64,000 nucleotides of DNA from contig NW_003314275.1 of assembly GCF_000143415.4 (NCBI RefSeq), positions 1,493,955 through 1,557,954 of the forward strand, read 5' to 3'. Position 1 is the first letter of the stretch. Each line of letters starts with the position of its first letter. A program made the translations under genes and the position numbers. The notes beneath the pieces were generated by a model. That model was not told the DNA's origin. It did no database searches and saw only the letters and a program-made list of their open reading frames with translations. Of this stretch, positions 7,628-46,145 are shown piece after piece. This stretch comes from Selaginella moellendorffii (Eukaryota; Plantae; Lycopodiophyta).

Positions 7628-8775
7628 TGTAAGCCACAAATTTTTCCTTTCCAATTTGCCAGCTTACCTCGTCTATCCGTCCAACACTGCCTTGGCTTTT
7701 GCTAAGTTCCCTTGCCAAGGTTCTCGCCTATGGTACCAGCTCCTACTTGGTTTCAGCTACTCACTGCACGAGCAACGGAGAGTTAGCCATCCTTCCACGG
7801 ATTCCCAAATCACTCCCAATCCCCCTCCCCGGGTTAGACTGGACTTAAGGTTCGGCTACACTCCCCGCAAGCGCAAGCAGCCAAGCACACCAAGCTTCCA
7901 GATTCCTAACATCCCTTGGTACCACAAGACTTGATCATGGGACCCTCTAAATCCCAAGTCTTGAGTGCAACACTTGCTTCGGGACGCCGGGGCGAAACAC
8001 CGTGGCCTAACGGCCCGGTATGGGTACCCCTCGCCCCCCACATCCATCCCGAAGGAAGGCCCAAGCCCCTAGGAAGGGCGAGGACCAATGAGCCGCATGG
8101 TACTCAAGTGGGGCACCACTCCACATGAGCCGGGAGCACCGCAATCGGTTTCCCTTTCGGGAGTGGGAGCTGCTCTTGAGCACTTCCTTGGATGGCCCCT
8201 CCGGCACCAGCCAAGTCCATGCTCACTCCCACCCAAGGCCCCTTGGTCCCAGTCCCAACCTCAAGTCGGTTTGGAAGCCCAACTGGAGAGTCCCTTCAAA
8301 ACTAGTTCCTGGACCTCACTATCCCTACTATACTTTTGGAACCCCCCGCAGCCCCCCCCCCCTGGGGGACGCACGCTTTGGGCTTTCACCCCTTGACCCG
8401 TATTAGTATTTGGACTTAGTCTCTGGCTCGATCTCGGATCCGATTTCGGATCCGACTTCGGATTCGGTCTCGGACTCGATCGCGGACTCGATCTCGGACC
8501 CGATCTCAGGCCCGACCTCGGACTCGACTTCGGACTCGGTCTCGGACCCAATTTCGGATCTCGGACTCCGTCTTGAACTCGGTCTCGAACTCGGACTCGA
8601 ACTCGGTCCCCGAGTCGGTCTTGGACTCGATTCCGGACTCTATCTCGAACTCGGTCCTAGAGTCGGTCTTGGACTCGATCTTTGACTTGGTCCCATCCGA
8701 TGAACTCTTTGTCATTTTGGTCATGCTTTCGGGGTTCCCTTAGCCTACGACACCTCGGCGAGTTGGTTCCTTACA
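7628..8775 (-). repeat. 3' LTR of element A
   Basis: Repeat of 14012-15159 at offset 6384; the translated ORF tracks of the two copies are identical. Confidence 0.97.
8410..8682. repeat. CG-rich degenerate 6/12-mer tandem array in U3 of the A LTR (second copy 14794-15066)
   Basis: Repeated tcggac / ctcgaa / tcggtc units. Confidence 0.85.
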
Positions 8776-8787
8776 ACTCCACCACCC
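8776..8787 (-). other. Polypurine-tract position (GGGTGGTGGAGT) of element A
   Basis: Abuts the 3' LTR; an identical 12-mer abuts the B 3' LTR at 20161-20172. Confidence 0.8.
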
Positions 8788-8789
8788 AT

Positions 8790-9095
8790 AGAAGAAGTTC
8801 GATGCCCACATCGAACGTCTCTTTTTTATCCTACGACTTGTTGACCATGTCTCCGGGGGCATCCCCCCACTTAGCGGTGTGCCTAAGTTAGCCTCCCCGG
8901 CCAAGAGCTCATGACAACGGAATATAGGTGTCCCTATACTCCACCCCTCACCACGCCCTAGTATGGGGTCGGGACTTGAACCCAGCCTTGCTTTACTAGG
9001 GGGTTGGGACTCAAACCCAACCTCCGTAGAATACGTCTACGGATTCGACATCCCCGCAGGGAGTCGGGCGTAGCTCCCTACGCCTGGTCGACCTA
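8790..9095 (-). other. Conserved multi-hairpin cis-element in the 3' non-coding region of element A
   Basis: About nine consecutive stems, with a homologue showing compensatory changes in element B (21355-21785 and 20181-20202). Confidence 0.7.
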
Positions 9096-9179: not shown

Positions 9180-12100
9180 TTAATTGAACTTTGCATAAGT
9201 ACATAGAGTTCTGCCTTGCAGAAATTCCTCCACTAGATCTCGCGCGTTCGCTAGGTTCTCCTCCGGTTCCCATGTTGCTTCGCAGTGTGGAAATCCTTTC
9301 CACTTCACATGGAACTCTCTCACCTCGCGTCCTTGTCGCTTGCTCTTGCGCGCATTGAGGATGGCCTCGACTTCGTATTCCTCTTCCCCTTGGATAACCT
9401 CAGGTAAAGGTCTTACTTGGTCTTTGCGAAGCGGATCCTCAAAGTACGGCTTGAGTAAGTTCACATGGAACACTGGGTGCATCTTCCCCATCTCTCGAGG
9501 AAGTCGGAGTCGGTAAGCCACTTTACCGATTCGTGCCTCAATCTCGTAAGGCCCCGCGAACCTGCTTAAGGAACTCAAGATCAATTCATTTACAGGAATA
9601 CATGCATTTTTACCTTTGGGTCAACTTTCGGCTGATCCCACTTGGTAGCCTAAGGTTCTTGGTGTTCAGCCACACCTTCTCCCCAGCTTGGAACTCTACG
9701 TCCCGGCGCTTTAGGTTCGCGTACTTGGTTTGCCTTTGTTGAGCCCGTTCCAAGGAATCCCTCACTAGATTCCAAATGTTGAGTCTTTCCGCCGTGAATG
9801 CCTCCACTGCGGGTAACTCTCCATGATACTCGGCCACGCCGAGTTCCACAGGACCTTCAATAGCTCGCCCATTGATGACTTCCCATGGACTCACCCCGAT
9901 GCTCGAATGTGGTGAGTTGTTATAACACATTTCCGCAAGTCCCAAATGACTTACCCAGTCGGTCTGGTCTCCCGAGACATAGCATCGCAAATAATCCTCC
10001 AGCTGCCTATTCACCCTTTCCGTTTGTCCGTCTGTCAAGAAGTGTTAGTGCCATCAATCTTGACTCAATACCCATTACCTGTCTGTGGGTGATAGGCCGT
10101 GCTGAATTTCAACTTGGTGCGATACTGTTCTAGGAGTGTCCTCCAGAACCTACTGGTGAAGATCTTATCTCGATCTGAGATAATCTCTTCCGGCCTTCCC
10201 CGCACTCGAACCACTTGTTCGAAGAACAGCTTCGCCACACCTTCCGCATCCACATCCGTTGTGGTGGGTATGAAATGTGCCATCTTTGAAAATCGGTCCA
10301 CCACCACGAATATCGCATCGAACCCCTCGCTTGGGGGTAGTCCCGTGATGAAGTCCATCGTGAGACATTTCCACGGACGATCTGGAATGGGGATGCTTTG
10401 CAACAAGCCCCCACTAGCCTTCGTCACGGCTTTAACCTGCTGACATGTTGGACATGTCTTTACATAGTCTTGGACGTCCTTAGCCATATCTGGCCAGTGA
10501 TACTTCCTTTTGAGTAAGCCCATCGTCTTGGGCACTCCGCCGTGTCCCGCGAGAGGTCCGTCATGACACTCTTCCAAGGCTACCTTCCTTAGTTCCCCTT
10601 CTGGAACATACACCCTCGTTTGCTTGTAATATATGAGTCCGTTGCGTTCCGCATAGCCCGTTTTCTCTTCCGTTGGCAGCTCACCTCTCTGGTGAGCTTC
10701 CCGCGCCTCCAGATTCCTCAGCAACACTTCTTGTGCTAGACCATCACTCTCGTATGCGGTCCGCACATCGTCCCAAAAGGTTGCTGTCGCGCTAGATATC
10801 GCCAACTTCAAACTCGCTTTTCGACTGAGCGCATCTGCCACGATGTTGCTCTTCCCAGGCTTGTACAGGATCTCGCAATCAAACTCGGCCAAAGCATTGG
10901 CCCACCGACCTTGTTTTCCCCTTAGGTCGGGCTGTGACAAGAAGTGTTTCGTTGCCACATTGTCCGTGTAAACCTTGAAGTGTCTCCCAAGGTAGTGTCG
11001 CCACTCCTTGAGCGCCTTGACCACCGCAAACAATTCCTTCTCGTGGGCAGGCCACTTCCGTTGAGCCTTGTCCAGCTTCTTCGAGAAGAACGCTATTGGA
11101 TGGTTGTCTTGCTTCAAAACTGCGCCCAACGCAAAGTCCGAAGCATCCGTGTCTACCTCAAAGTCTTTACCAAAGTCTGGTAAGGCCAACACCGGAGCCT
11201 TCCTCAACTTCCCTTTGAGGTGGACGAATGCTGCCTCGCATTCCGCTGTCCATACCATCTTCCCTTTTCCTGTTTGGTCCGTTAAGGGCAGGGCTACTCT
11301 CGAATAGTGTCTGATAAACTTTCGATAGTAGTTGCATAGCCCCAGGAACGCCCTCAACTCATGTACATTCGATGGTCGTTCCCATTCCTGGATCGCTTGG
11401 ACCTTCTCCGGGTCCACCTTGAGCCCGTCTTGGCCCACCACATGCCCGAGAAACTTTACCTCTTGTCGAGCAAAGTCACATTTGCTCTCTTTAGCATACA
11501 GTTTGTGTTCCCTTAGTTTCTCAAACACCTTCGCCAAGTGTTCGGCATGCTCCTCTAGCGTCTCGCTATAGATCAGGATGTCGTCAATATAGACGACCAC
11601 GAAGCGATCCAGATAGGGTACAAAGATGTGGTTCATCAACGCCGAAAACGTTGCCGGCGCATTGCACAGCCCAAAGGGCATCACCAAAAACTCAAAGCTC
11701 CCATACCTCGTTCGACAGGTTGTCTTCTCGACATCTTCCTCAGCTACCCTGATCTGGTAGTATCCTGACCTTAGGTCAATCCTCGAGAAGTATTTTGCTT
11801 TTCCCAACCTATCGAACAGGTCCTCGATCCTTGGCAAAGGGTACTTGTTCTTCTTGGTATACTTGTTGAGCAACCGGTAGTCTATGCACATGCGCATAGA
11901 TCCATCTTTCTTTTTCACAAATAGCACCGGCGCCCCATACGGCGACTTGCTCAACCTAACATACCCTTTGTCCACCAACTCCTCTAGTTGGCTCTTGAGC
12001 TCCTTGAGTTCTTTTTCGTTCAATCGATAGGGTGGACGAACCACCGCCTCAGCACCCTCGACCAGCTCAATCTTATGTTCTATCGGTCGTGCGGGGGGCA

Positions 12101-13952
12101 ACCCCGCCGGTAGCTCCTCCGGCATGGTATCCTGGAATTGGTCCAACACTCGCTGGATCACTAAAGGCACTTCTTCCGTTCTTGTCTTTTTGTCACTCTT
12201 CACCGAGAGTAAGCACAAAAAGGCTGCCTTAGTTCCTTTAGTGAGTTGTCCTCTCGTGGACACCAGGTTCAAGCATGACTCTTTGGCCTTGCTTTGCCCT
12301 ACCTTTAGATCCTGGGCCTCCACCCTAGATCTTCTTCCTTGGGCATTCGCCAATACCACAAGGTTCCTACCTTGTCCATGCAGGGCTACCACGAACCGAT
12401 TAAACCAATCCATTCCAAAGATCACGTCAAATCCCGCCATATCCAAGACGGTGAAATCCATGTCCACTTTCCATGTCCCCACTTCGACTCTCGCTTGTCG
12501 AAGTACCTCATCGGTGCTTTGGCTACCCTGAACAAACTCTATAGTCCTTGGTTCGCCTAGCCGCTGCACCGTTAGTCCGGCTTGCCGGACTATGTCTGCA
12601 GCCACAAAATTATCCGAAGCACCCGTGTCAATAAGGATCTTAACAAAGCTACCTCCGAGCTTCCCTCGGAGGGCTAGTAGATGTCGCGAACGACTCTCTA
12701 CCAAAGTTGCTCGTGTAATGAGTAACTTTGAGTTAGGGACTGGATCACATACCTCAGTTTGGACTTCACCCGACTTGATGGCCATATTGGCTCTGGCCTT
12801 CTTCGGGTAGGGACATTCCCTCGAGAAGTGTCCCGCTTCGCCGCAGTTGTAGCATACGTTGTTTCCCACGCTGCTATACGACTTGACCTTCTTATCCGTG
12901 GGTTTGTCCTTTTTCGCTTGACTCCCCCACGTACTCGCTCGCTGGCCACCGGATTTGCCTTTCCGGAACCCCGAGGACTCATTCTTAGAGAAACTCCTTT
13001 TGAATTTCCCCTTGCTATACGTTCCCCTTGGTTTGGCCCCTTTGCTAAATGTGGATCCCGACCCCGTCGTGTTCCCCTTTCGCAGGTTATCGTTGAAATG
13101 CACCTTGATGGCCGCATCCAACGCTTCCTTGTAGTTGGTCGGGTTCCACCTCATCACCTCGCCGCGAGCCCAGGTTTGCAAACCTGATATGAAGGCATGG
13201 AACGCATCCATATCCCCCATGTCCGTGACAAGTATCCTCTTTGCCATGAACCCATTCACATATTCCTGGATGGTTCCTGTCTGTTTCAGCCTACTCAGTT
13301 CATCCCTCAGATGCAGAGTGGCATTCGGAGGAACATATGTTGCGCGGATCCTCGCCTTCATCATGTCCCAAGTGACCACCGGTCCTTCGTTGGCCTCCGT
13401 TGTTCTCCACCAAGACTTGGCATTATCTGCCAAGTATGGTTTTGCACATGGGACCTTCTCCGAGCTTGGTAACCGCAACGCTCGGAAGTAGTCCTCCATA
13501 TCGTAAAACCAATCCTCCACCACCTTATAGTCATTCACTCCCTTGAAGACCGGTGGGGGCTTTGGTTTGTACTTGGGAACTGCCTGAGGGACTGATTCCA
13601 CTTCGGTCTGTTCGACCTTGTCTGGTTTTGCCTCAGTCCCGACCGAAAGATCCGCACCTTCTGCGCTGCCAGCATCCGCAGTCTTTTTCTTTTTCTTCCG
13701 CCTCTCGTCACGCTTTAGCTTGCGTACGAGAGTTTCCAGCAGGGCATTGGTCTGTGCCAACTGTCCTTCTAGCACGTCCAATCGAGCCTTGGACGACCGA
13801 ACCTCGCCACCGGACTCCTGTTTGGAAGTTTCCTCACTGGAGTCCTCCTCATGCAAGGATTCCTCATCCATAGCCTCTTGTTCAACCGGAGGCTCCAGCT
13901 CCGGCGGAGGTTCCGTCTCCGCCTGGGTTCGCTTACGCCCTGCCCTTGCCAT
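9180..13952 (-). CDS. gag-pol: Gag-Pol polyprotein (Gag, CCHC knuckle, protease, RT, RNase H, integrase, chromodomain); 3 exons 13952-10079, 10031-9614, 9561-9180 giving 1557 aa
   Basis: [14 protein letters not shown]; LIDTGA; YIDD; TDASD..GAVL; HHCC and D,D-35-E (MDFI, SDRD, QTER); GPY/F motif; YEVEAIL...VKWKGF...TWEPEENL. The three ORF pieces join in frame by removing two GT-AG segments. Confidence 0.92.
9562..9613 (-). other. Predicted spliceosomal intron 2 (52 bp) before the GPY/F motif
   Basis: caaag|GTAAAA...taagcAG|gttc, 17/52 G+C. Removal restores KLTQRFAGPY; contains an in-frame TAA. Confidence 0.85.
10032..10078 (-). other. Predicted spliceosomal intron 1 (47 bp) in the integrase core
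   Basis: cagacag|GTAATG...CACTAAC...ttgacAG|acgga. Removal restores the conserved HPQTDGQTER; contains an in-frame TGA. Confidence 0.85.
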
Positions 13953-13996: not shown

Positions 13997-14008
13997 GCTC
14001 CGATACCA
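13997..14008 (-). other. Primer-binding site (tRNA-iMet type, TGGTATCGGAGC) of element A
   Basis: 3 nt from the LTR; one A>G difference from canonical TGGTATCAGAGC. Confidence 0.9.
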
Positions 14009-14011
14009 AAT

Positions 14012-15159
14012 TGTAAGCCACAAATTTTTCCTTTCCAATTTGCCAGCTTACCTCGTCTATCCGTCCAACACTGCCTTGGCTTTTGCTAAGTTCCCTTGCC
14101 AAGGTTCTCGCCTATGGTACCAGCTCCTACTTGGTTTCAGCTACTCACTGCACGAGCAACGGAGAGTTAGCCATCCTTCCACGGATTCCCAAATCACTCC
14201 CAATCCCCCTCCCCGGGTTAGACTGGACTTAAGGTTCGGCTACACTCCCCGCAAGCGCAAGCAGCCAAGCACACCAAGCTTCCAGATTCCTAACATCCCT
14301 TGGTACCACAAGACTTGATCATGGGACCCTCTAAATCCCAAGTCTTGAGTGCAACACTTGCTTCGGGACGCCGGGGCGAAACACCGTGGCCTAACGGCCC
14401 GGTATGGGTACCCCTCGCCCCCCACATCCATCCCGAAGGAAGGCCCAAGCCCCTAGGAAGGGCGAGGACCAATGAGCCGCATGGTACTCAAGTGGGGCAC
14501 CACTCCACATGAGCCGGGAGCACCGCAATCGGTTTCCCTTTCGGGAGTGGGAGCTGCTCTTGAGCACTTCCTTGGATGGCCCCTCCGGCACCAGCCAAGT
14601 CCATGCTCACTCCCACCCAAGGCCCCTTGGTCCCAGTCCCAACCTCAAGTCGGTTTGGAAGCCCAACTGGAGAGTCCCTTCAAAACTAGTTCCTGGACCT
14701 CACTATCCCTACTATACTTTTGGAACCCCCCGCAGCCCCCCCCCCCTGGGGGACGCACGCTTTGGGCTTTCACCCCTTGACCCGTATTAGTATTTGGACT
14801 TAGTCTCTGGCTCGATCTCGGATCCGATTTCGGATCCGACTTCGGATTCGGTCTCGGACTCGATCGCGGACTCGATCTCGGACCCGATCTCAGGCCCGAC
14901 CTCGGACTCGACTTCGGACTCGGTCTCGGACCCAATTTCGGATCTCGGACTCCGTCTTGAACTCGGTCTCGAACTCGGACTCGAACTCGGTCCCCGAGTC
15001 GGTCTTGGACTCGATTCCGGACTCTATCTCGAACTCGGTCCTAGAGTCGGTCTTGGACTCGATCTTTGACTTGGTCCCATCCGATGAACTCTTTGTCATT
15101 TTGGTCATGCTTTCGGGGTTCCCTTAGCCTACGACACCTCGGCGAGTTGGTTCCTTACA
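14012..15159 (-). repeat. 5' LTR of element A
   Basis: Repeat of 7628-8775, adjacent to the PBS. Confidence 0.97.
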
Positions 15160-15667
15160 TTTCACCATGCACACGAAGTGCTAAAGCCAATCTGCCTATA
15201 CTGGCCCAAACTCAAAAATCAATAGATGGACAATAGTCTCTCTGTCGATGTTCCTTATTCCGTTAAAGGGGTGTGACCGTGTAAACAACTTTAACTACCT
15301 GTTTACAGTAGTCTATCTAAACCTTACCGACGGGTTTGGTTTCTTTGCTCAGGAGGGTTGGGGCCTCTGGCTTCTCTCTCTATGTCCTTGTGGGCAGGGC
15401 ATATCACACTTTTGTAAGCTGGGTGACACCCAGAGCAGCAAGGGTGGCTCACTCTATTGGTCATTTCCTTGTCGGCGACGGTCGGAAGGTGTCTAAGCTG
15501 GTAGCGCATCCACGTTAGATAAAGAGGTTGCCTCCCAACTCATTTAAGTTGGTGCATTTCTCACATAGTGTGAATACCGTGAACTTTTTCTGGAGTTGTT
15601 TCCTTGGCAGTATTCTAGACTCGAGTATGCATCGACGAGGACATTGATCTTCTCTAGGGGGGGAGAG

Positions 15668-16794: not shown

Positions 16795-17530
16795 CTAGCA
16801 CAATAAGGGCTACCAAAGGGATCCAACTGTACCAACCTCCTACTGTCATGGCAGTAAGGAAAGAGTGTCTATAAAGACTGGCCGACAAATATCTTTCGAT
16901 ACCCAAAATCACATTTGCAACACTTTCCCCCCCTTAGGGAAGATCGACGTCCTCGTTGATGCATACCTGAGTCTAGCAAACCATCAAGGAAACAATTCCG
17001 AAAGTTAACAGAAAGCACACTATGTGGGAAACACACCGACTTAAATGAGTTATAGAACAACTTCTCCTCTACGTCCAAAGACATTAAGACTCAAACACCC
17101 TAGGACCGTCGCCGACAAAGAAATGACTGACGGAGTTAGCCACCCTTGTTGCTCCAAGTACCACTTGGCTTACAAAGGAATGATACATCCTTGCCCGTAG
17201 GGACATAGGGAAAGGGCCAAAGGCCCAACTTCCCCTAAGCAAGAAATCAACCTCGTCAGGAAGATTTAGACAACTATTATAAATTGGCAAATTAAGTTGT
17301 TTACACAACCACGCCCCTTTTCAAAAATGAGTCATCGAGAGAGAGGTGGGGACTTGTGATCAGTCTATAATAGTTATCCCCATGGTTATGGATTGGACCC
17401 ATGCACCGAAGTGCCGAAGTCAGCCTACCAAAACTGACTCAAGTACTAACGAACGAGAGAAACAACACTTGGATTTATAGAAATATATTACTTTATTAAT
17501 TTGCAAGATTTATTACAAGATTTACAAAAG

Positions 17531-18296: not shown

Positions 18297-20160
18297 TGTA
18301 AGCGACTAAATTTTTCATTCTACTTTAGTCACTTAACCACACCTCTGACCACTTGGAGGAGTCTTATTCACAACCTCCATAAGTCCAATCCAGGACTTGG
18401 GACTTGCTAGCCCCGAGAATGGCATCCATGCCACTCAACATTTGCACTTGGTCCAAGTGCTCCACGTGTCCAATCCCATGACCGACACTCAAAGGTACCA
18501 TCGACATAGCAGCCCGTTAAGCTAAGGCCATGCCCAATCACCTTTGCCACACTAGTAGTCCAATACCACTTGCATCACCGTCTTGGCTCTCCAAGACTAG
18601 GCAAACCATCCGTGAGTGGTCATCTCAGATCCACTCCTTAGCATCCTTAAGATGCCCACCGACAAGGGGAATAGCCTTCCCCAATATCCCTCTGTTAGTC
18701 CCCACTAAGTCCCTTTCTGCCTCTGGCCGTGTTTGCCAACACTGCCACTGGATCGAGACCCACAGGCCCGACCACTAAGTCCCACGGTCCTCTGGGACTT
18801 CCTCACCACACGACTGTGTCCTTGGTCACTACCCCAGAGGACTGCTCCTCTTCCTTTCCACAGTCTGGGCCTTTGGGACAACATTTCGGAACACCGTGGC
18901 CTTACGCGAGCCACCTAGGTACTCTCCTCGCCTTCTGCCCTTGGGTGCTCTAGCCATGGGCTTAGAGCGGGTTCCGTTGAGCCACACCAGGTATCCAAGT
19001 AGGTAGTGCCACCCACACTTGGACTGGGAGCATCGGCCAGTCGATCTCCCGGGGGAACTAGAGCCGGCTCTTGAACACTTCACCAAGCTACCCCGCTTGT
19101 CGGTCTGTGTTCACTCTAGTCTTGGACTTCCCAGTGGGCAGCTCATCACCCAACACTGGGTCCGGCCTTCCTGGGCCAAACTGGCCTTTCCTGGCCAAAT
19201 TGGCTCCATTGCAGTCCTCCCCCCACTATACTTTTGGAGCTCACCAAACCCCTCAGGGTCTGGGAGACGAACGCTTTGGGCTTTCACCCTCTCAGGCTCC
19301 GGACTTGGACTTGGACTCGGACTCGGACTCGGACTCGGACTTGGACTCGGACTCGGACTCGGGCTCGGGCTCGGTCTCGGCCTCGGCCTCGGTCTCGGTC
19401 TCGGTCCCGATCTCGGTCTCGGTCTCGGTCTCGGTCTCGATCTCGGTCCCGGTCTCGGTCTCGACTTCGGACTCCATCTCGGACTCCATCTCGGACTCCA
19501 TCTCGGACTCCATCACGGACTCCATCTCGGGTCCATCTCGGGTCCATCTCGGACTCCATCTCGGACTCTATCTCGGGTCCATCTCGGACTCCATTTCGGG
19601 TCCATCTCGGGTCCACCTCAGACTCCATCTCGGACTCCATCTCGGACTCCATCTCGGGTCCATCTCGGACTCCACTTCGGACTCCAACTCGGGTCCATCT
19701 CGGGTCCACCTCGGACTCCATCTTGGACTCCATCTCGGGTCCATCTCGGACTCCACTTCGGACTCCAACTCGGGTCCATCTCGGACTCCACTTCGGACTC
19801 CATTTCGGGTCCACCTCGGACTCCATCTCGGACTCCATCTCGGACTCCATCTCGGGTCCATCTCGGACTCCACTTCGGACTCCATCTCGGGTCCACCTTG
19901 GACTCCACTTCGGGGTCCTTCTCGGACTCTTCCACGTGTCATGTGTTGGTCCTTTTGGGTCCCTTTTTTGGAGCCTCACTTATTGCTCTATTTGTGCTTG
20001 TTCCTCGAGCACTTTGTTGGGAGTTCCACTCCCGCTCTCGACCTTTCAAGGCGAAGCTTTTAGTCCAAACGTGTTACGCTTGTTTGGCTTTTCGCTTCGG
20101 CCACTACCACGTGGCACCCTTCCAGCACCACTTTGGGGCCTAGGGATTTTGTGTCTCACA
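18297..20160 (-). repeat. 3' LTR of element B (1864 bp)
   Basis: tgtaagcgac...gtgtctcaca, repeat of 24245-26090. Confidence 0.93.
19296..19930. repeat. Tandem array in the B LTR: 6-mers (tcggac, tcggtc) then 12-mers (tccatctcggac); second copy 25244-25860
   Basis: Directly visible periodicity; it generates the long low-complexity ORFs. Confidence 0.92.
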
Positions 20161-23100
20161 ACTCCACCACCCATAGACGAAGTTCGATGTCCTCATCGAA
20201 CGGTGAACCATTTTATAAAGTAACACCCGCATGTGTTACCATTTCCATCCTTGGCGCGTAGCCAATATTTGTCAATGGTGTGACCTTGAAGGCTCACCAT
20301 GCCTTCTCCATATTCGTCAATGGTTGGACATTGAAGGCTCACCATGCCTTTTGCATATCCTCTAAGGAGGGTAGTCTCCCCAACTTAGAGACTGATTGGA
20401 CCACATATAGTGGTTCTCTCCTTTTATTGGTTTAGTTCTCGCTAAACCTTTTAGAGACCCTTCTCTAAGTCAATCCCACTACTCCTTCTCGAGTAGTCTC
20501 AATTTCCATCGATATAACCTTTGCACTTTGGAACTTTGAATTTTGACTTTTTGGAGTCAATTTCCTAGGTGTCTCCGACACCTTGCCTTGCACCTTTTGT
20601 GCAACTCCACTTCCCATCCTAGGAAGTTCTCTACTCGAGGGCACCATCATCCTCTCTTCTATTTCGTGCCAAAGTTCCAGTTATCATACTTTGTGCTAGG
20701 GCTGTTCATGGCCCTATCATTTGGCTACCTTACCGCTCCCTCCCTTGGAGCTTCCACTTTCGCCAAATCGGAGCATTTCGGAATCCCTCCTTGGAAACAC
20801 ACTTCCTTTCCCGCAACTTGTTAGCGTCCAACACATTAGTGTTCCTCGCCTAACTTTGTCACTTGGATTCCTTCCAAGGGATTCCACGGCCCTATCTTGG
20901 CCACTCATCTTTTGCTCCTATCCGTTGATTGTTGCACCAAGCACCATCGAATCTCTACCTCCCTCCTTGAGGTATTGTTTCGGTTCCATAGCAAAGACTC
21001 TTCTTTGCCAAGTCCGGAGGATGTTCACCCTTAGTACGTCTCTTTAGCATCTTCTGCTATGGGCTCTATCCACAGCCCAACTTCGTGACCCTCCCATGGG
21101 TCTTTTATAGAAACTACTTTCCTCGGACTCACTATGCCATCGCATGGACATAGTTTATTTTCCTTAGGTGCTCTTCCCACTTGGTCATCACGACCAAGCC
21201 ACACCACCTTAAACAGTTCAATTTCAACATTTTGAACCAGGAATTTCATTCCTTAGCCAACCAAGGACCTTGTCCTTATCTGGCCATAAGATCACCTAGT
21301 GATCTCACCTTGGCACCTTAACAGAGTTGCCAAGAGGTACTTGGTCTTCTAGACCTCCAAGTTGTTGACTATAACCCCGGGGGCATCCCCCACACTTGGC
21401 GGTGCACCCAAGCTAGCCCTTACGGCCAAGGGTTCATAGCAACTGAGATTAGGTGTCCCCATCTCACTCACCACGACCTTGGTGCCACTTGCACCAAAGT
21501 GTTCAAGTTAGATATGCTGAGCTTTCACACTAAGCAATCTAACTGTGCATCACGACTCCGAGGCATCCCTCGCTTGGCGGTGTGCCCAAACCAGTCTCCC
21601 CACTGAGAGTCCATGACCACCGAAATATGAGTGTCCTCATATTCCAAACCATCACCACGCCCTAGTGATTTGGGACTCGAACCCAAGCACTAGAGGGTCG
21701 GGACTCGAACCCAACCTCCGTATATGCATCTACGGACGGCATCACACAAGATGCCTGGCGTGACTCCCCACGCCGGTGCACCAACTTATTTTTAAAGTGC
21801 GCTACAGATCACAGCTTAGGAACCTAGTTCCTCCACACTGCCAAGTCCTCTCACTTGACATGTCTGTGATCATGCATGGACTCCTCCATGCTCGGCCCCA
21901 TGGCCCACCCTTTTTGAAGTTATCACCTTCAACTAGGGTATTTGTTCCCCCGACGTGCCAATCTCGCTTGGCAAGTCCTCCGACCACTGTAACATGGTTC
22001 CTGCATAAGCGTGAAAGTCCTTGACCATCGACTTTCGTTCAAAGCCCTCTCTTTGAACACTCGGGAACTACTTCCCTAACCTTGATAGCCTTGCCTCATG
22101 GCAAGCTTCAAGACCACGCTTCTGCTGCGCCACTCTGATTTCGCGCGTTCCATGAACCATTTACACTTGGCCTTTCTAGGTACTAAGCTACCTAGAATCG
22201 TCTTTGGGAACCTTGAAGGAACTCTGTCCCTTAGCTTGCTAAGGCCTCCCTTTTTGCAAGCTTTCCAATTGCCACATAGTCTAACATGGACAATTCCATA
22301 TTTTAGACTCTCCATGGCATCACGGTTGCTAGCGGCAACACCCTCGAGCCCCCACTTGATTCTCCACTCCCAGCTGGTATAACCAACCTTGGTTATGCCC
22401 TTCGATTTCTATGGTTCAGTTCCATCCCAATACTACTTGCCTTTTGGCCCCATATGTTTCCTTTGGTTATTCTCCTCCAGACCTTTCTATCATGCCTTAG
22501 CAAGTATTCTTAGGGATGTACCTACCCAATAGCCCAGGGAGTGGTTCCTCAATCCGGGTATGCTCACCTTATAATCCCACACACTGGGATTACATTGTTG
22601 CTTATGGGCCTTTCCATGCCCATCACTAGCCTTGCCAAAATTCCATTTTTGGCTTTGTCCAACTCGGGTAGACAGTCCTCTCTTGTCTCCGCAACTTTGG
22701 ACATTTGGATAGCACCTTCTATCCATCATTCGCTAGGGACTTAGTCCCTTGGGCTTTATCTATTGCCCTCGCGACATCAAACACCACCTTCTGGTGTTCT
22801 AGAGTGTTCGGGTGTCCCAATGATGGCTTTCTTGACAATGAGTATTTCCTTTTATGACATTGACTTACTATATTGCAACACAAGCAACTTATCCCCCGTA
22901 AGGGTATATCCAACTTCCCTATGCTATTAAGAAGTCTTGGGTAGCTACCTTCTACCCGTTTAACCAGTTATTTTGCACCTCCTGCTTAGTTGCCTCATAG
23001 TTGTCAAGTCCTACAACTCATTGCTTGGTGCTTTCACACCTCCATCATTATCTGAGTCACCACACTCCAACTGCATGCTCTGCAGCTTAGGCTATGCCAT

Positions 23101-24244
23101 TCCCATTTCCATTGGGATTCCTTTGGCAAGGGGTTCTCATGAACCCACCAACATAGCCTCAAGGTATCACACCTTGGCACATTTGGTGTCTCCACACCAT
23201 CGGCTTCACGAGCTTACCTCTATGACACTTCTTCTTCATGTCTAAGTCTCTGCCAAGACCAATACCGCTCTTTCTCATGCCAACCATTTGTTAGCACCGC
23301 ACCATAGAGGTCACACACAACTTTGGGTAAAAGTTGTTTTCTTTTTGGGAACACCTTTCCCACGACTTTAGCATGGCACATTTTGCCATCGATGAGATAC
23401 CCTCTATTCTCATCCTTGGATCCTATGATCCCCCCCCCCCATCCTTTGTGGGGTACAACACACCTCAGTCCAAATGCTTCCATCAGTCCTTTTAGGACCA
23501 TTCCTTGACTCTACTTGAGTCATCCAACAGTTTTGGACTTGGTTAATCCACAGACCTGTAAGGTCCTCTTTGTGAGGCACTAGCTCACTGGAATACACTT
23601 CTTGCATTCCTGTCCTACTCAAAAGGACTATTTTCACAAGTGTTACTCCGACACTTGATTTTGTTCTCTGGGGGCAACCTTTGCCCCTTATGACTACTTG
23701 TCCATGTGATGAGAATACCAACTCATCCACTTAATACACCCCCAACTCCTTGGGTTGTTCCAGCATTTATTAAAGGTAGCCCCGGCTACCATTTCAAGGA
23801 CTTGAGTCCTCTTCCGTATTTGACCTCCCACGGTCATTGCCTCTGGTCTCACATTCATGAGCACCAACCTCAACTATATGAGGATAATCTTGTGACTCCT
23901 TTATTGTTTTGGAGTCTACATCTTTCCCGTGATCCCAACTATAGTTGTTTATCACAACTACGTTAGCCCGTTTGCTGCGTCAAACGTTCATTTGGATCAC
24001 ATCCTCAGCTCTCTGAGGAGACCTTATACTGTTCCCAAGACCCCAAAGTCGTTCCATTATTAGCCCTTTTCTATCCACCACGTTGTGCCCAAGTTCACGC
24101 ATGAACTTGAGTGGAAAGCCATGTCCTCTCGACATGCTACTCTCCAGGATAGGCCCACTCCTAGGACCTTCCGATGCCAACATCAATGGTGATATACTTG
24201 AGCACCAATAAAAGTCGGACTAAGGAACAGCTCCGATACCAAGT

Positions 24245-26090
24245 TGTAAGCGACTAAATTTTCCATTCTACTTTAGTCACTTAACCACACCTCTGACCAC
24301 TTGGAGGAGTCTTATTCACAACCTCCATAAGTCCAATCCAGGACTTGGGACTTGCTAGCCCCGAGAATGGCATCCATGCCACTCAACATTTGCACTTGGT
24401 CCAAGTGCTCCACGTGTCCAATCCCATGACCGACACTCAAAGGTACCACCGACATAGCAGCCCGTTACGCTAAGGCCATGCCCAATCACCTTTGCCACAC
24501 TGGTAGTCCAATACCACTTGCATCACCGTCTTGGCTCTCCAAGACTAGGCAAACCATCCGTGAGTGGTCATCTCAGATCCACTCCTTAGCATCCTTAGGA
24601 TGCCCACCGACAAGGGGAATAGCCTTCCCCAATATCCCTCTGTCAGTCCCCATTAAGTCCCTTTCTGCCCCTGGCCGTGTTTGCCAACACTGCCACTAGA
24701 TCGAGACCCACAGGCCCGACCACTAAGTCCCACGGTCCTCTGGGACTTCCTCACCACACGACTGTGTCCTTGGTCACTACCCCAGAGGACTGCTCCTCTT
24801 CCTTTCCACAGTCTGGGCCTTTGGGACAACATTTCGGAACACCGTGGCCTTATGCGAGCCACCTGGGTACTCTCCTCGCCTTCTGCCCTTGGGTGCTCTA
24901 GCCATGGGCTTAGAGCGGGTTCCGTTGAGCCACACCAGGTATCCAAGTAGGTAGTGCCACCCACACTTGGACTGGGAGCATCGGCCAGTCGATCTCCCGG
25001 GGGAATTAGAGCCGGCTCTTGAACACTTCACCAAGCTACCCCGCTTGTCGGTCTGTGTTCACTCTAGTCTTGGACTTCCCAGTGGGCAGCTCATCACCCA
25101 ACACTGGGTCTAGCCTTCCTGGGCCAAACTGGCCTTTCCTGGCCAAACTGGCTCCACTGCAGTCCTCCCCCCACTATACTTTTGGAGCTCACCAAACCCC
25201 CCAGGGTCTGGGAGACGAACGCTTTGGGCTTTCACCCTCTCAGGCTCCGGACTCGGACTCGGACTCGGACTCGGACTTGGACTCGGACTCGGACTCAGAC
25301 TCGGATTCGGGCTCGGGCTCGGTCTCGGCCTCGGCCTCGGTCTCGGTCTCGGTCCCGATCCCGGTCTCGGTCTCGGTCTCGGTCTCGGTCCCGGTCTCGG
25401 TCTCGACTTCGGACTCCATCTCGGACTCCATCTCGGACTCCATCCCGGACTCCATCTCGGGTCCATCTCGGGTCCATCTCGGACTCCATCTCGGACTCTA
25501 TCTCGGGTCCATCTCGGACTCCATTTCGGGTCCATCTCGGGTCCACCTCGGACTCCATCTCGGACTCCATCTCGGACTCCATCTCGGGTCCATCTCGGAC
25601 TCCACTTCAGACTCCAACTCGGGTCCATCTCGGGTCCACCTCGGACTCCATCTTGGACTCCATCTCGGGTCCATCTCGGACTCCACTTCGGACTCCAACT
25701 CGGGTCCATCTCGGACTCCACTTCGGACTCCATTTCGGGTCCACCTCGGACTCCATCTCGGACTCCATCTCGGACTCCATCTCAGGTCCATCTCGGACTC
25801 CACTTCGGACTCCATCTCGGGTCCACCTCGGACTCCACTTCGGGGTCCTTCTCGGACTCTTCCACGTGTCATGTGTTGGTCCTTTTGGGTCCCTTTTTTG
25901 GAGCCTCACTTATTGCTCTCTTTGTGCTTGTTCCTCGAGCACTTTGTTGGGAGTTCCACTCCCGCTCTCAACCTTTCAAGGCAGAGCTTTTATTCCAAAC
26001 GTGTTACGCTCGTTTGGCTTTTCGCTTCGGCCACTACCACGTGGCACCCTTCCAGCACCACTTTGGGGCCTAGGGATTTTGTGTCTCACA
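24245..26090 (-). repeat. 5' LTR of element B (1846 bp)
   Basis: Repeat of 18297-20160, 18 bp shorter in the tandem array. Confidence 0.93.
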
Positions 26091-27285: not shown

Positions 27286-29183
27286 ATATGAAAGCTTAGT
27301 TTGTGATTTCACCCTAATTAGTCTTTTGGATAAATTTGAAAACTTACTAAATATAGAATTTCATTAGATTGCAAATTAGAATGCAAGAACAATACTATGG
27401 TGTTTAGAACACTCTTTACATTTCATAAACATGCCTCACTAATACATATTATAAATAGCACATATGGGGTATGGTAGCAAGAGTGTTTAGCAAACATAGT
27501 AATCTATCATGTAGTAATATTAGGGGATTATACTCAATATATAAAAATTATTATCACTAGCCAATGCAAGACATAATAAAATAGGAATTTTTTACCAGAC
27601 TAAATATGTTTACTTAATAGTATATAAGAATTCCATCCATATACTAGTTTGGTCTAAATACACTCAAAATGTCTAATTAACTTCATCAGTACAAGAAGGG
27701 CGAACAAAGGGAATCAACTATACTAAACTCCTACTATCATAGTAGTAAAAAGAGAATGTCTGAAAGGACAAGCTAACAAATATATTTTAATACTTTTGAT
27801 ATCAAAGGTGGTATCTTGTTCCTAAAGTTACATTTGTAACAAACGCTCACTTGAGAAGAGTATATTCTTGATGACTATATCGAGAATTTAGTAATTATAA
27901 AGAGTGAGTTAAAAAATTTATATAACATTGCAACCAACTCAAAAACCATGAAGAAAACATAGGGAAAGTGCATGTAATATATTAAAATGATATGATAAAA
28001 CTAAATTAATTGGTGTTTTCTTTGCTTTTAGAGTTTATTTCATAATGCATTTACTACTAATCATTGAAAAAAGATTTAGCTTCTATTCATCCAACCTACA
28101 ACATTATATGGTAATGTGTTAATTTCAAATAGAGTCATCATGGTTAAATCACATATCGAAGCTTTTACAACTATAGAGATAAGTAGCAAGTTTCACATGC
28201 TTAGAAATTTTGTCTACAACAAACTAGAGTCTAGGTTTGTCAAATGTTAGACAAACAAGTAATTCTTATAGTATTTTTGGGGTCTATGCCACAGTAATGA
28301 GCATAGAAAATACACTTTATTGAGCAATTTGTATTTGCTTGATAATTTTTAAACAACAATCAAACAAAAGATTCCAAACATGAAGGCAACTAAAACAAAA
28401 ACTTGATTTATATATATTTAGAATTCTAAATAGGAGAAATCTTAATCACTATGTACAAGAAAATTCAAGTTTTTCTCTCGAAAACATACAATTAGTAAGA
28501 TTTATCTTTTGGATTTCTAGCTCTTAAAGTAGCATAAGTTTATATCTAGGTTTTGCAGGTACTTTTGTCCAAATCCCCATTCATCACCTCAAATAGATAT
28601 TGAAATCGGATGGCCAATCTTAACCCCTAAGGATATAAACTAACTTTAGAGAGTTCTCCTAAAGTGGGAGCATTGCCTGATAATTAAGGACACTGTTTCT
28701 ATTAGAGGGTATTTCATTTATGTATTTTAGCAATTAAAGCTGAAGATGCCATTTTGCAAATGAGCATATTGAGTGGGGAATTCTTGAGCAAGGAGATCTC
28801 AAAAGGACATTGACACATATTATTCACTTTAAAGTTATGGTTTTGTGGTGCTATTCTCAACAAAGAAGAAGATTATGACTGTACAACCATTGTGTTGGGA
28901 TGATTAGCAAGAGTATTTAGTCAAAAAAACTTCGTATGGGTCAGTCACAAGTGGATGATTAGGACAATCTTCTCTAAAGTTTTAAATGTTAATATAAAAC
29001 TGACTTTGTAAAACCACTATATAAAACCAATAAAAATACCCATTATGTGAAACCCATAAAGGAAAACCAAATTCTAAAACCATATATAAAACATAATGAT
29101 GAAGCATATGAAAGCATCTCACCTGTTTGAGCATTCTTATTCCCATTTGACACACACACACACACACATGGCATAATCATGAT

Positions 29184-29780
29184 AATTACAATATCTGAGA
29201 TAAATATTTACCTCCGTCAATGTATACCTCAGATTCAAAAGAAAACTCTTATTTTTCATTGATGGTGAGCTGCTACTGTTGATTCACAACACCTGAAAAA
29301 TAAACAAAAGTTAATTCTTGCACATGCGAAGCAATGGTACACTACTTCTTCCATGTATGCTGCTTTAACCTAGAAGTGAATTCCAAGCCTGTCAAACATA
29401 CCTGCTTGATTGGTTTATGAGGAAGCGTCGGTGTTGAAAGGTCCATGCTAAAGATCTTTGAGCCCGCAAATTGTAATAGCTTGTGTACCTGAAACACAAA
29501 CTCAAAACCCTCAAGGACTTAGTTACCTCTGACTCTAGACTCTCTAGCTCCTTGTATTTCTTCATGATGTATTCCATCAGCATTTTCTTGCTAATGCACA
29601 TTCTAGCTCGCACTGGATATACATGTACACTTAATTGCCGCTCCACTTCCCACGATCACAAAGCAAGCCTGTTGTTGGCGACGTATGTGGCAACTCCTAG
29701 GATCGAACGGAGAACCTCGGATTTGTCATGAAAAGCTGTGACACCATTCACGACCAGTATCATAGGTGTCTTGCCATACT
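29184..29780 (-). pseudogene. Deleted paralogue of the P-loop ATPase gene (another at 38550-39090)
   Basis: Homologous exons (EYIMKKYKELES) with multiple deletions. Confidence 0.75.
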
Positions 29781-30445
29781 TATATAAGGTGGGGTTCAGG
29801 GTTTAGGGTCACTATGTCAACTATCACTGGACGAATTGTGGTGTGCGGCAGACCAGGTCTTGTAGCATCGAGTTCTGTGCACAGTGCTACAGAGGGAAGC
29901 TTGTTAAGACTAGGTTTTATTAAAGATTTAATCTCAGATTGGTTCTTTTTTCAAAGAAACAACCTACGAGCTTTTTGTGGGAGAGCACAAGCCAATGCTA
30001 ACGAGAGAGCTGATAAAAAGACTGGAGAAGTGAAGATGAGCGTGGTGGACTACACCCTTGGACTTCTCTATGTCCTTGCGACAATATCTTTTGAGGGCGC
30101 ATATCACCTTTCACTTGCCACTTTGATCATTACCTTGTATTGGTTTTTTGTTCTTGATAGAGATGCCTTGCAGATTGGTATGGCTGCTACTGCAGCATAT
30201 CAATATATCTGCCATGGGACGTGTGCTAGTGAAGCAAATCAAGGTATCTGCTGCGCACATTGCATTGATTATGACCAAAAAATGAACTTGTTGACTTTTT
30301 TTTAATTCTATTTGAAACATACTTTTTTATATTTTTAATTTATTTTTTCCCAAGAAAGCCGTGAATTGCATCGACCACACCCTACCGATTGTAAGATCCA
30401 ATAGAACATGAAATGCTCCGAGACCAATACGCGGATCTCTCCTTC

Positions 30446-30531
30446 CCTTGTCCAAGATGATCAGTTCTGTTGCTGAAGTGTTGCAAGAGCATCATCCTCT
30501 TCAGCAACAGAACTGATCATCTTGGACAAGG
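30446..30531. repeat. Perfect 33-bp inverted repeat with 20-nt loop (duplicate at 39945-40030)
   Basis: ccttgtccaagatgatcagttctgttgctgaag ... cttcagcaacagaactgatcatcttggacaagg. Confidence 0.93.
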
Positions 30532-30857
30532 AAATGGAATCTTTTTGTTTGGCTCGCCCGGTGCTCAAGATGAATAAGCCCAGCCATGAGCTGCTCGTGG
30601 AGATGGTTGCAAAGCACTCAATGACAAGCTCAATGCTTGGAGCGGCGTCTGTTCGAGTTCGACTTCTCAGAGGGCTGCTTAAGTTATTTACTCATTGTGA
30701 AGCTTACAACTCCCAAGGTCTACTTGTGGGCTACATCGATAGATATTGAATCTTGTTTGATCCGGCATTTTACCGTAAATCAAAACGACTGTGGGAGAGT
30801 TTGGCGTTCACAAATTTAACCACTTTAATGATCGTATCAATGTATGCCAATTGACAG

Positions 30858-31465
30858 TTGTACTAAAGAATATTCACGAAATCTCCATTTTATTTTCTCT
30901 TTTGTGGTGGCTGTGGTCCTTGCTTCACCCTTAGAAACACCGACACTCTCCCTGGATCCTCCTCGCCTCCTCTCCTCCGACAAGGATGATTTGTAAGAAC
31001 TTCTCAATCTGTAACTCTCGCCTCGATCTCGATTGGACGATGGCTTGTTCACCCCACTATCCCTGCTGCTATCTCTCCGCTCCGAATCTCTTTCCTTGTA
31101 ATCGTACTCATCATAAAACCATCTCCAATTGGATGAGGGGCCCCTCCATAAGTTTCAATTCCGTCAGGCATCCATGGCATTTGCTAGCCTGAATAGTCTA
31201 GTTTACCAAGTCAGTAACTGGAGCATCGAAATTGAGGAAAAGTACCTAGGCATCCTTACCTCCATCAAAACAACTTTCTCCCAGGTCTGTGATTGATCCC
31301 TCGCTGCCGATAGAACAGGAGAGGCTGCTTTTGAGGCAACACTGACTCCATATCTGTGAACGATGTATTAGATTACTCATTGCATCACACCATGGAAGGA
31401 GGTCGTCGACAGGCACATGTGTCGCTCCACAAACGCATTTGCATTTAGAAATGATCTCGCCGCTA
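30858..31465 (-). pseudogene. Deletion-riddled copy of the 3' half of the DWNN gene (also 40342-40978 and 34960-35295)
   Basis: Colinear short blocks matching 46100-47605, including intron sequence. Confidence 0.85.
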
Positions 31466-32149
31466 TCCTTTTAAGGGAGTAGCAACATAAGAGAGTGGAT
31501 TATGCATTATCTCAATTCCTCCACAAAATGGCCACCAGGAAGAACAAGAAAAGGCATACCTCCTATGACTGTGATATATGAAGCAAAATGTAACTCTTCT
31601 TTCTTCCTCTTTTTCTTTTAACGCATTCTTTGAACCATGGACCCTGTGGCACAAAAAAAGGCCTGCGATGGAGATAAAAAAAGAGAGAGTGGAAAACTTA
31701 TCAGCCAGATAATGCTGTCATACTCCTTGACAGCCTCCGTGAACTTGGTACACATTTGACACAGCCCCGCATTGAGCAAGTCAAATTGTTAAGCTAATAA
31801 TCGACGGACCGTCGATTTTCTGCTGGGCTCCAATTGGGATTTTCGTGCTCGCCACCGTCGAAGCAGTGAAACTCCTATTCGAAAGCTCCAGACAATGTAA
31901 GCCGTGTTTCCTTAGCTGCTTACTTGCAAGTCTGAGATCAAATGCTGAGGTTTGTATTCCTCTTTATTTACTTCTTTTCTTCTTAAGTTAATGAATCTGT
32001 GATTTTGGTTTTGCACAGGCCACCATTTGGTGGTTTCCTCAACGCCAGCATCTGTCTAGAACCTGGACTTTAGCTGCATAATCTCTGTGTAAACTGCATT
32101 GTCGAAGTCATCTTCCACTTTTCAGATCGTTTTGTACTCAACAATCAAA

Positions 32150-32310
32150 CAGGTGGGAAACACAAAGGTCATAATCTGCATACCACAGCAAGCGGCCGCT
32201 TATTTGCGTGAAGTCGAAGAGCGGGCTAGGACGGGCGCAGTCACTGTTGGTCGCAACCTCTATGGGATCCTTGCAGTGTCAGACCCGCTCAAACGAGAAG
32301 CCGCCATTCG
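32150..32310 (+). pseudogene. Fragment of a P1B copper ATPase (RAN1/HMA-like); duplicate at 41676-41836
   Basis: IPQQAAAYLREVEERARTG...YGILAVSDPLKREAA resembles the N/P-domain junction of RAN1/HMA5. Confidence 0.7.
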
Positions 32311-32707
32311 CCCATGCACAGGAAAGCTCGTGTTAAATCTTTGAGAAACTTATACTCGTCAGTTGCTTGCATCGTGCAAGTGTCTGGCTATAGCAAGAGA
32401 GGGCACTGCTTTGGTTGGCAGTCGTCTGTCTACTTATGAGTGTTCCTATTCCCATTTTGTTTGAAGCCTTCCACAACGACGTTCTTCCTGGTGGCTAATT
32501 CACTTCCACATTATATATCCTTGTACATATGTATATATAGCATCTATAGCCAAAATTGCCTTAATCAGACTTAACACTGTCTTCTCTACTTCTTGTAGTC
32601 ACTATACTGAAAATCACCTCTAACAGTTGGACTTAATACTGTTCTTTTCTACTCAGTTTTTTTCATGTTTGTAGTCACTGCATAGCACCCACGCATAAGC
32701 ATGATAA

Positions 32708-34270: not shown

Positions 34271-34595
34271 CTTTGCAAGCGTTTACACCAAAATCATTCA
34301 TATTTGACTTCTCATAACCGGGTTCAGGGTTTAGGGTCACTATGTCAGCTCTCACAGGACAAATTGTGGTGTGCGGACCAAGTCTTGTAGCATCAAGTTC
34401 TGTACACAGTGCTACAAGACTCAATGTTTCTAGGAAGAACATTGGAGCGAAGCTTGTTGCAAGGTAAGACTAGGTCTTATTAAAGATTTGATCTCAGATT
34501 GGTTCTTTTTTCCAAGAAACAACCGACGAGCTTTTTGTGGGAGAGCTCAAGCTAAAGCTAATGACAGAGATGATAAAAAGACCAGAGAAGTGAAG

Positions 34596-34922
34596 ATGAG
34601 CTTTATGAAGATGAGTTTGGTGGACGACACAATTACACTTGTCCGTGTCCTTGCGGTACTATGTTTTGTGGCCTGTTATGAGGGCGGGTATCGCCTTTTG
34701 GTTTTCACTCTGGGCATGACCTTGTTTTGCGGTGGTGGCGCAATTGTCTTGAGTTTGGGTTTTGCGTTGGCGGTGGTGGCTGTGGAGTTCTTAATAGTGA
34801 TGCCTTGCAGATTGGTATGGCTACTACTGCAGCATATCAACATATCTGCCGTGAAACATGTGTTAGTACAGCAAATCAAGGTGTCTGCTGCGGACATTGC
34901 ATTGATTTTGACCAAGCGATAA
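34596..34922 (+). CDS. Putative small hydrophobic protein (108 aa), duplicate of 45715-46041
   Basis: ATG-initiated ORF with hydrophobic segments; more divergent relatives at about 30035-30305 and 39358-39660. Confidence 0.35.
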   Translation: MSFMKMSLVDDTITLVRVLAVLCFVACYEGGYRLLVFTLGMTLFCGGGAIVLSLGFALAVVAVEFLIVMPCRLVWLLLQHINISAVKHVLVQQIKVSAADIALILTKR

Positions 34923-43729: not shown

Positions 43730-43820
43730 TGTGTATCCATTTCCAACTTTGGGTACATCTGGTATTATGAGGCACACACACAAACATGATACATTCTTTA
43801 TTAAACAATGTAAAGGGATA

Positions 43821-43922
43821 CCTCGGGTCAGTAGTGGGGACTGCAGATCTCGTCGCGTCCAGGTGGGAAACGAGCCTCGGGTCAGCGGTGGGGACTGCAG
43901 ATCTCGTCGTGTCCAAGTGGGA
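43821..43922. repeat. Two-copy 54-bp tandem repeat upstream of the ATPase gene
   Basis: cctcgggtcag...gtggga at 43821 and 43875. Confidence 0.85.
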
Positions 43923-46041: not shown

Positions 46042-46145
46042 AACGAATTTGTTGACTTTCTTATTAATAGAATCCAAATTTCAAACTCCAAACACCTCTC
46101 TCAAAGAATATTCGCGCATTTTATTTACACCGTTTTCCATTTTTT

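Follow-up and report, generated by a model that had tools for sequence, protein, structure and literature searches.

Structured cis elements are already known as a kind amongst LTR retroelements. The MTE of MusD and the RTE of IAP, which act through NXF1, are located between pol and the 3′ LTR. Features of retroviral packaging signals include a GGAG tetraloop, a GUGCAC palindrome and a linker between helices to which one zinc knuckle binds (PMC7599994, in part); known signals of retroviruses and of Ty1 sit near the 5′ end, the packaging and dimerisation signals of Ty1 occupying the 5′ UTR and gag (PMC6844567, in part). In the bromoviruses a T-loop motif on a stem-loop within a non-coding stretch of the plant viral RNA, box B, is needed for replication recruitment, and brome mosaic virus recruits its RNA via this box, which is conserved with the tRNA T-loop (PMC4083346 and PMC5869524, both in part). 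For non-autonomous elements, a 2026 survey recognises LTR, PBS, PPT and coding remnants as modules (PMC13570524, in part), and the short TRIMs Helenus and Cassandra contain tRNA-like A and B boxes inside the LTR that are conserved as promoters (PMC10886601, in part).

Here we analyse a window of 64,000 nt from the Selaginella moellendorffii genome (contig NW_003314275.1; all coordinates are window positions) in which a module of ~250 nt is carried by an autonomous retrotransposon, A, and by a non-coding partner, B. On the genomic-RNA (minus) strand it comprises 13 predicted helical segments in the order palindrome, H1, H2, H3, T1, H5 ending in T2, the linker CGUGGUGA, H6 and a four-way junction (Table 1). 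With the DIS/psi hairpin of HIV-1 and the core encapsidation signal of MoMuLV it has in common a string of short hairpins, a GGAG tetraloop, a GUGCAC-type palindrome, a G-containing inter-helix linker and a Gag with a CCHC knuckle, whereas it lies 3′ rather than 5′, places the palindrome outside a hairpin loop, adds two T-loops and a four-way junction and shares no demonstrated sequence homology; the resemblances are analogies. The MTE and RTE, too, act in cis in LTR retroelements as large structures that may contain tertiary pairing (PMC3362945 and PMC12786077, both in part), but they yield no Rfam or sequence match with the module. We found no description of the module in the literature, nor of tandem T-loops in a retrotransposon 3′ UTR in the literature searched; Repbase, subscription journals and supplements, outside that literature, may annotate the element. 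Within this known kind, the plant module, 3′ in position, with its T-loops in tandem and mapped through an autonomous and a non-autonomous element, appears to be a variant not described before, and the A/B pair narrows the candidate signal to 250 nt with a pair-by-pair model, so that it is directly testable.

The autonomous element, its non-coding partner and the sequence they share

Element A, which lies on the minus strand and is interrupted by two short introns, belongs to the chromovirus-type Ty3/gypsy retrotransposons; its domains follow the order Gag-PR-RT-RH-IN with a C-terminal chromodomain, and it is flanked by a 5-bp target duplication (TTTCA). The unspliced gag-pol frame runs from 13952 to 10065 on the minus strand; since unspliced RNA is translated no farther than 10065, a complete integrase would require splicing. 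Both introns are of the spliceosomal type and absent from intronless relatives, in comparison with which the exon junctions of A join exactly. Chromovirus clades are treated in PMC6317226 (in part), and the available parts of that paper and of PMC2864245 make no mention of integrase introns or 3′ structure. In a phylogeny of gag-pol proteins built with FastTree, A falls (support 0.98) with a seed-plant clade of chromodomain gag-pol proteins ~1540 aa long, as a side branch (support 0.91) together with the P0029 group and with family M, which stands for the best 80 of 519 loci from a protein-led scan (L037-L116). We take the seed-plant clade to be Galadriel; from it A differs in being only 52-56% identical in RT-integrase and in its two integrase introns.

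The preliminary description had put the 5′ leader of A at about 45 nt, with little room for a psi. The distance from the end of the PBS to the ATG is indeed 44 nt, but 764 nt separate the ATG from a TATA-like box upstream, so that the real leader is probably far longer, at ~740 nt. It probably includes ~700 nt of LTR with structured windows, and the argument from want of space is not supported. The stem gttcgatg/catcgaac next to the PPT, which had been counted with the module, is present in A and B with different loops as described, but in B it stands 1.15 kb from the nearest module copy; of 78 family-M loci (best 80 of 519), 72 have downstream of the chromodomain a hairpin with the same GAUG/CAUC core and, mostly, an AGGA loop. 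The gap and this wider occurrence place the PPT hairpin outside the module, as a separate and wider chromovirus feature. A variant precedes the true PPT in family M, and the hairpin is present in family C of the window as well. Many seed-plant relatives end in an ATRTS-like peptide (C-termini of P0036, P0056, P0059 and P0060), which may represent a translation of the AGGA-loop PPT hairpin.

Element B, an LTR element that codes for no protein and is the partner of A, has the attributes of a LARD (LTRs, PBS, PPT, >4 kb, no protein): tblastn of A's proteins against its 4084-nt interior gave no match, and its LTRs are identical at 1811 of 1846 aligned bases (98%). Its PBS at 24230-24241 is A's variant, with G at position 8, and differs from those of two other elements in the window. 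When the 5.2-kb interior of A and the 4.1-kb interior of B are compared by blastn, the module matches (E 3e-25 and 1e-17), and the remaining matches are 42 nt at the PPT, 13 nt of the PBS and one of 24 nt with E 0.22; the module is thus the sole long internal sequence common to both, and within it A and B are ~72% identical. Outside the U3 repeats the LTRs have only short patches in common. In comparison with LARDs, the structure is here traced to the autonomous partner with pair-level compensation.

B contains a second, partial copy of the module (B2), as the preliminary description had noticed. The two B copies match A at 85/115 and 88/114 positions and each other at 70/111. Since each copy resembles A more closely than it does the other, B2 cannot have arisen by recent duplication of B1. 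The two may have been captured separately from partner RNA, or an old duplication may lie behind them.

Several further features of the two elements were observed. An array of ~12-nt tandem repeats occupies the U3 of both LTRs and is longer in B. The whole interior of B (20161-24244, minus strand) is hairpin-rich, with near-continuous stems from 22200 to 21100. It also contains a tRNA-like stretch, absent from A and with no Rfam match, whose sequence we take to be like that at the 5′ end of initiator tRNA-Met in plants. Its first 16 nt equal the start of a wheat small RNA (PMC5411081, in part), and it was possibly captured from packaged primer tRNA.

Table 1. Positions of the elements, of the module parts and of neighbouring features in the window
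Feature	Position	Strand	Description
5′ LTR of A	14012-15159	-	1148 nt; TATA-like box at 14716
Primer-binding site of A	13997-14008	-	Variant with G at position 8
gag-pol of A	9180-13952	-	Gag, one CCHC knuckle, protease, RT, RNase H, integrase, chromodomain; three exons
Intron 1 of A	10032-10078	-	In integrase; 47 nt, GT-AG; exons meet at residues 1272/1274 of P0029
Intron 2 of A	9562-9613	-	In integrase; 52 nt, GT-AG; exons meet at 1412/1416 of P0029
Polypurine tract of A	8776-8787	-	Letters identical in B at 20161-20172
3′ LTR of A	7628-8775	-	1148 nt; 100% identical to 5′ LTR
PPT-adjacent hairpin of A	8797-8816	-	Loop UGGG
PPT-adjacent hairpin of B	20182-20201	-	Loop AGGA
Element B	18297-26090	-	7.8 kb; LTRs 24245-26090 and 18297-20160; 4084-nt internal region
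U3 repeat arrays	8400-8700, 14790-15080 (A); 19280-19930, 25230-25860 (B)
tRNA-like stretch in B	22113-22139	-	27 nt, single copy, 330 nt upstream of module, sense orientation
Module, copy A	8840-9093	-	3′ UTR of A; 87 nt past chromodomain stop, 24 nt before PPT hairpin
Module, full copy B1	21545-21782	-	Inside non-coding element B, ~2.5 kb after PBS
Module, half-copy B2	21364-21475	-	Linker, H6, four-way junction
8-nt palindrome GGUCGACC	9086-9093	-	B: GGUGCACC at 21775-21782; candidate dimer contact
H1	9067-9084	-	7-bp hairpin, invariant GGAG tetraloop; one double change, one G.U; B 21757-21774
H2	9047-9065	-	Hairpin, variable loop; one double change; B 21738-21755
H3	9023-9043	-	Unchanged 6-bp stem; loop holds ACGU (A) or AUGCAU (B); B 21717-21736
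T1	9002-9022	-	7-bp hairpin, tRNA T-loop-like UUUGAGU; B UUCGAGU, 21696-21716
H5 stem	8956-9001	-	Carries T2; B 21660-21695
T2	8969-8985	-	Second T-loop hairpin, UUCAAGU; B UUCGAGU
Linker CGUGGUGA	8948-8955	-	Invariant; B 21652-21659 and 21468-21475
H6	8919-8942	-	10-bp hairpin, invariant GACA loop; two double changes A/B1; B 21622-21645 and 21445-21465
Four-way junction	8840-8918	-	Closing stem P7 (14-bp, interrupted) and arms a, b, c
3′ region of family C	15238-15667 (+), 16920-17345 (-)		Compensatory changes P 0.006, 0.034; AGGA-loop PPT hairpin

Covariation and strand of the RNA module

All 24 stem halves listed in the preliminary description are present where it placed them. One pairing in B, cttgg/ccaag, is exact in B2 (21395/21408), whereas in B1 one of its pairs is U.G on the minus strand. 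The stems had been quoted from the plus strand; they are real, but the element and the fit of the structure belong to the minus strand. There, 16 G.U stand against 1 A.C amongst 196 paired cells, and one-sided changes that still pair number 12 and 10, versus 3 and 6 on the plus strand; this bias and the one-sided changes fit the structure to the genomic RNA.

In a hand register of A against B1, which, being fitted to the structure, exaggerates the effect, 52 of 76 pairs are unchanged, 11 are changed on both sides and paired, 10 are changed on one side and paired, and 3 are broken; 3.0 double changes are expected under the null, and 11 were reached in 0/20000 simulations. An unbiased test uses a plain MAFFT alignment and a fold taken from one sequence only and tested on the other. 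For A and B1 it yields 7 and 9 double changes versus 2.9 and 3.7 expected (P 0.011 and 0.004), which bears out the original observation that pairing is kept while sequence changes; an earlier run with another alignment and trimming gave P 0.066 and 0.0065. For B1 and B2 the test returns P 0.0003 and 0.17, and A against B2 alone is not significant on the sense strand (P 0.30 and 0.51). Amongst six control repeat pairs from the window, just one of which is as diverged as the module copies, double changes reach P<0.05 in 3 of 24 tests and pairs kept in none. Two counts of structure pairs, 10/39 (2/500 shuffles) and 6/52 (5/500 shuffles), lean towards the structure because it was derived from the same alignment.

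The distribution of the changes is also informative. The stem closing the four-way junction covaries over a long range, the palindrome is preserved through sequence change between A and B, and seven of the ten unpaired segments are identical or nearly so; the loops GGAG, GACA and GAUG are invariant, and in the junction arm b has the loop G..CACCG and arm c GAUG. Stems that vary with compensation around near-identical unpaired segments are expected of a recognised RNA shape. We conclude that the module, with its conserved secondary structure on the genomic-RNA strand as in packaging signals, is very probably a selected RNA structure, and the claim that a conserved cis-acting structure is kept by the non-coding partner is upheld. 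Shared descent coupled with template-switch repair of short inverted repeats could mimic such compensation in a neutral relic. The covariation rests on three copies in the window (A, B1, B2), the hand alignment leans to the structure and A/B2 alone is not significant, as such a relic would allow; the 16:1 ratio, the long-range compensation, the invariant loops, the mostly null control pairs and the loss of similarity to A in the rest of the B interior render it most improbable.

Some predicted features carry their own qualifications. The linker can pair over 6 bp with the CACCGC loop of arm b in a possible pseudoknot, whose letters are invariant and so provide no covariation. T1 and T2 seem to derive from an old duplication in tandem. 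The two palindromes have self-duplex energies of -17.5 and -23.3 kcal/mol, but are predicted to be partly paired in context, and such 8-nt palindromes occur about once per 310 nt.

The module folds with z-scores of -6.1 (A) and -7.9 (B). We dropped these values as evidence for it, low scores being pervasive: windows at or below -2.5 account for 24/124 in A and 28/70 in B. Pervasive structure, above all in B with those 28 of 70 windows and its continuous hairpins from 22200 to 21100, would suit an element-wide fold that shields the 3′ UTR or the non-coding RNA from decay or small-RNA production and has no specific partner; families C and M, whose 3′ regions are unrelated, also have structure there. 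Such protection or anti-silencing leaves the invariant loops and linker unexplained, as well as why this segment alone keeps similarity between A and B, and we regard it as distinctly unlikely.

Possible functions of the module

The reading we put first, and hold to be evenly balanced between true and false, is that the module acts as a 3′ Gag-recognition and dimerisation signal for RNA packaging. The ~250-nt RNA would fold into the conserved multi-helix structure in the cell, and Gag would select and dimerise genomic RNA through it, its single zinc knuckle reading exposed guanosines in the GGAG loop and the linker while the palindrome joins two RNAs. The two T-loops might dock on the linker, a host protein or an element protein and so add specificity, and B would owe its mobilisation in trans, by A or a relative, to having kept the module.

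The argument for packaging comes from B. Since B encodes nothing yet has near-identical LTRs, it must carry every cis signal for trans-mobilisation; the PBS, the PPT and the LTR ends have their roles in reverse transcription and integration, which leaves the module as the remaining candidate for RNA selection. The module is present in both elements seen (n=2), and the 3′ domain that B holds twice, each copy nearer to A, fits capture from a co-packaged partner RNA. Packaging is also favoured by family C, in which an apparently non-coding copy and a chromodomain-bearing copy repeat the pattern with unrelated sequence. At ~72% identity within the module, A itself may not be B's helper. Against packaging, the module lies in the 3′ UTR of A and not at the 5′ end, where the probable ~740-nt leader could hold a packaging signal. 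The GGAG loop of HIV-1 can be replaced without loss of packaging (PMC7599994, in part), low folding z-scores are so widespread that stability alone does not single out the module, and T-loops are no feature of packaging signals in the parts of the literature compared, nor is a T-loop domain present in sister family M (best 80 of 519).

The preliminary description had offered packaging, dimerisation or nuclear export, with the CTE, RTE and MTE as analogues. As an export element, the structure would recruit export factors for unspliced, intron-retaining genomic RNA. The position between pol and the 3′ LTR, the recent insertion of A (its LTRs are identical) with both integrase introns retained, and the possible pseudoknot, a feature of the MTE (PMC3362945, in part), agree with export, and a 2025 review states that RNA export of plant LTR elements lacks direct study (PMC12786077, in part). 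The same source states that plants use TREX, not the NXF1 receptor. Moreover, B has no coding introns, no described element model in Rfam matches, and a hairpin-rich 3′ region is found even in intronless family M, so that the argument from introns loses force. Export is therefore displaced as the lead reading and seems to us unlikely.

The T-loops suggest a different comparison, in which they and the GG of the linker, as a stand-in for the D-loop, would imitate the tRNA elbow and recruit tRNA factors or position the primer tRNA; in a variant the module would be the 3′ half of a Ty3-like bipartite primer site that aids reverse transcription. All four exact matches to GGGTTYRAGTCCC in the window fall within the module, a count reached in 0/100 shuffles, and the letters GCGUGGU are common to the linker and the tRNA-like stretch of B. 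Ty3 binds its primer tRNA by 5′ and 3′ segments (PMC5371799, in part), and recruitment through box B in brome mosaic virus is a parallel. Neither ARAGORN nor Rfam, even at E 10, detects a tRNA, however; T1 is without double changes, in one T-loop of A a U replaces the C of tRNA, the T-loops have the same sense as tRNA and cannot base-pair with it, and family M (best 80 of 519) lacks them. We judge a tRNA-mimicking scaffold, in either form, improbable. A tRNA gene within the module was itself excluded by ARAGORN and Rfam, the module having no cloverleaf.

Amongst functional precedents for the T-loops, bromovirus box B is, by analogy, the nearest we found: in both cases the T-loop letters are displayed as a hairpin loop, here by prediction, but box B belongs to a positive-strand RNA virus, works with the 1a protein and occurs as one motif per RNA versus two in tandem here. 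One could go further and propose that the chromovirus lineage of A selects its genome by a 3′ tRNA-mimicking device, in which T-loops and D-loop-like linker form an elbow that is read by Gag or a host tRNA factor and marks unspliced RNA for packaging, the linker switches between the internal pseudoknot and the matching letters of the primer tRNA, and spliced RNA makes integrase. This combined proposal is quite improbable as a whole; if true, it would be a retrotransposon counterpart of box B, a transferable packaging tag captured by non-coding partners.

The T-loop letters also equal the B-box consensus, and LTR elements with tRNA-derived promoters exist, one of them in Selaginella (PMC10886601, in part). 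The module could accordingly be read at the DNA level, as two B-boxes for TFIIIC that serve as a boundary or, as Helenus does, as a Pol III promoter, with stems that are relics of a captured tRNA or SINE. It is internal and outside the LTR, no match to the A-box consensus lies near either copy, and compensation and G.U bias reach helices unrelated to the boxes; we give this reading very little credence. A Pol III promoter was dropped for the lack of that A-box match. The module resembles Helenus and Cassandra in placing tRNA-like letters within a non-autonomous LTR element, but here such letters are internal to a 7.8-kb element, which is no short TRIM, occur also in an autonomous one, lack an A box and are conserved as RNA structure.

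Relatives of the module and structured 3′ regions of other families

Rfam contains no family that matches the module at the gathering score or a meaningful E, and its scan found no ribozyme model there, so that the module does not have the hallmark of a retrozyme. The module is absent from all loci of the protein-led and pattern scans (family M: best 80 of 519). The junction pattern had 0 matches in viral and metagenome contigs and the T1 pattern 0 in prokaryote-genome and viral contigs. A double T-loop pattern occurs at 36 viral loci, which are tRNA arrays (20/36 scanned by Rfam) or a short tandem duplication and score at most 25 bits, mostly from the T-loop part, versus 137-156 for the module. 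In phage non-coding DNA, a tandem T-loop-like word lies among hairpins with no tRNA evident (L002:3001-3041 and ~14 similar viral loci). The protein-led scan had no matches in viral contigs; in prokaryote assemblies it returned 16 loci (L117-L132) with fragments of chromodomain-integrase retrotransposons, which are probably eukaryotic contamination.

Family M has no introns at A's positions (loci among the best 80 of 519) and carries ~750 nt of hairpin-rich sequence ahead of its PPT. Weak CM matches to this family (E 0.09-9), all to copies of one family, fall in 10 of 11 cases on a hairpin with a GACG or GACA loop; the loop is GACG in 27, GACA in 9 and GAUG in 6 of 44 copies (best 80 of 519). 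This hairpin lies 106-113 nt before the PPT hairpin, versus 124 nt for H6 in A, and homology with the module is only suggested. Over the last 224 nt, assessed in 44 of 47 full-length copies (best 80 of 519) after exclusion of three with large indels, covariation is not significant (7/64 pairs, 159/500 shuffles), and upstream it is mixed, with 115 cells versus 66 (0/500) yet 8 pairs versus 7.3. As a separate observation, L044:1481-2283 and 46 similar loci (best 80 of 519) have two PPT-hairpin/purine-tract motifs ~750 nt apart with hairpin-rich non-coding sequence between them, and one family-M pair reads A-U in 28 copies out of 47 (best 80 of 519) and G-C in the other 19, with no intermediates.

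The covarying 3′ region of family C is unrelated in sequence to the module. Structured 3′ regions thus look common in such elements and not tied to introns, and their presence in families M and C suggests a general, overlooked signal class. Between 2509 and 26380 the elements are nested: A lies within one family-C element, the apparently non-coding copy, and B within another, which bears the chromodomain. Farther along, a single-exon TspO gene (54926-55561) has its best named matches, at 49-54%, in a lycophyte, a fern and liverworts, with conifer-type matches at a similar level, as would suit a non-seed land plant; the very short introns would agree with Selaginella. The window also contains a 983-base N gap (58630-59612) and tandemly duplicated blocks with F-box genes (29170-47600).
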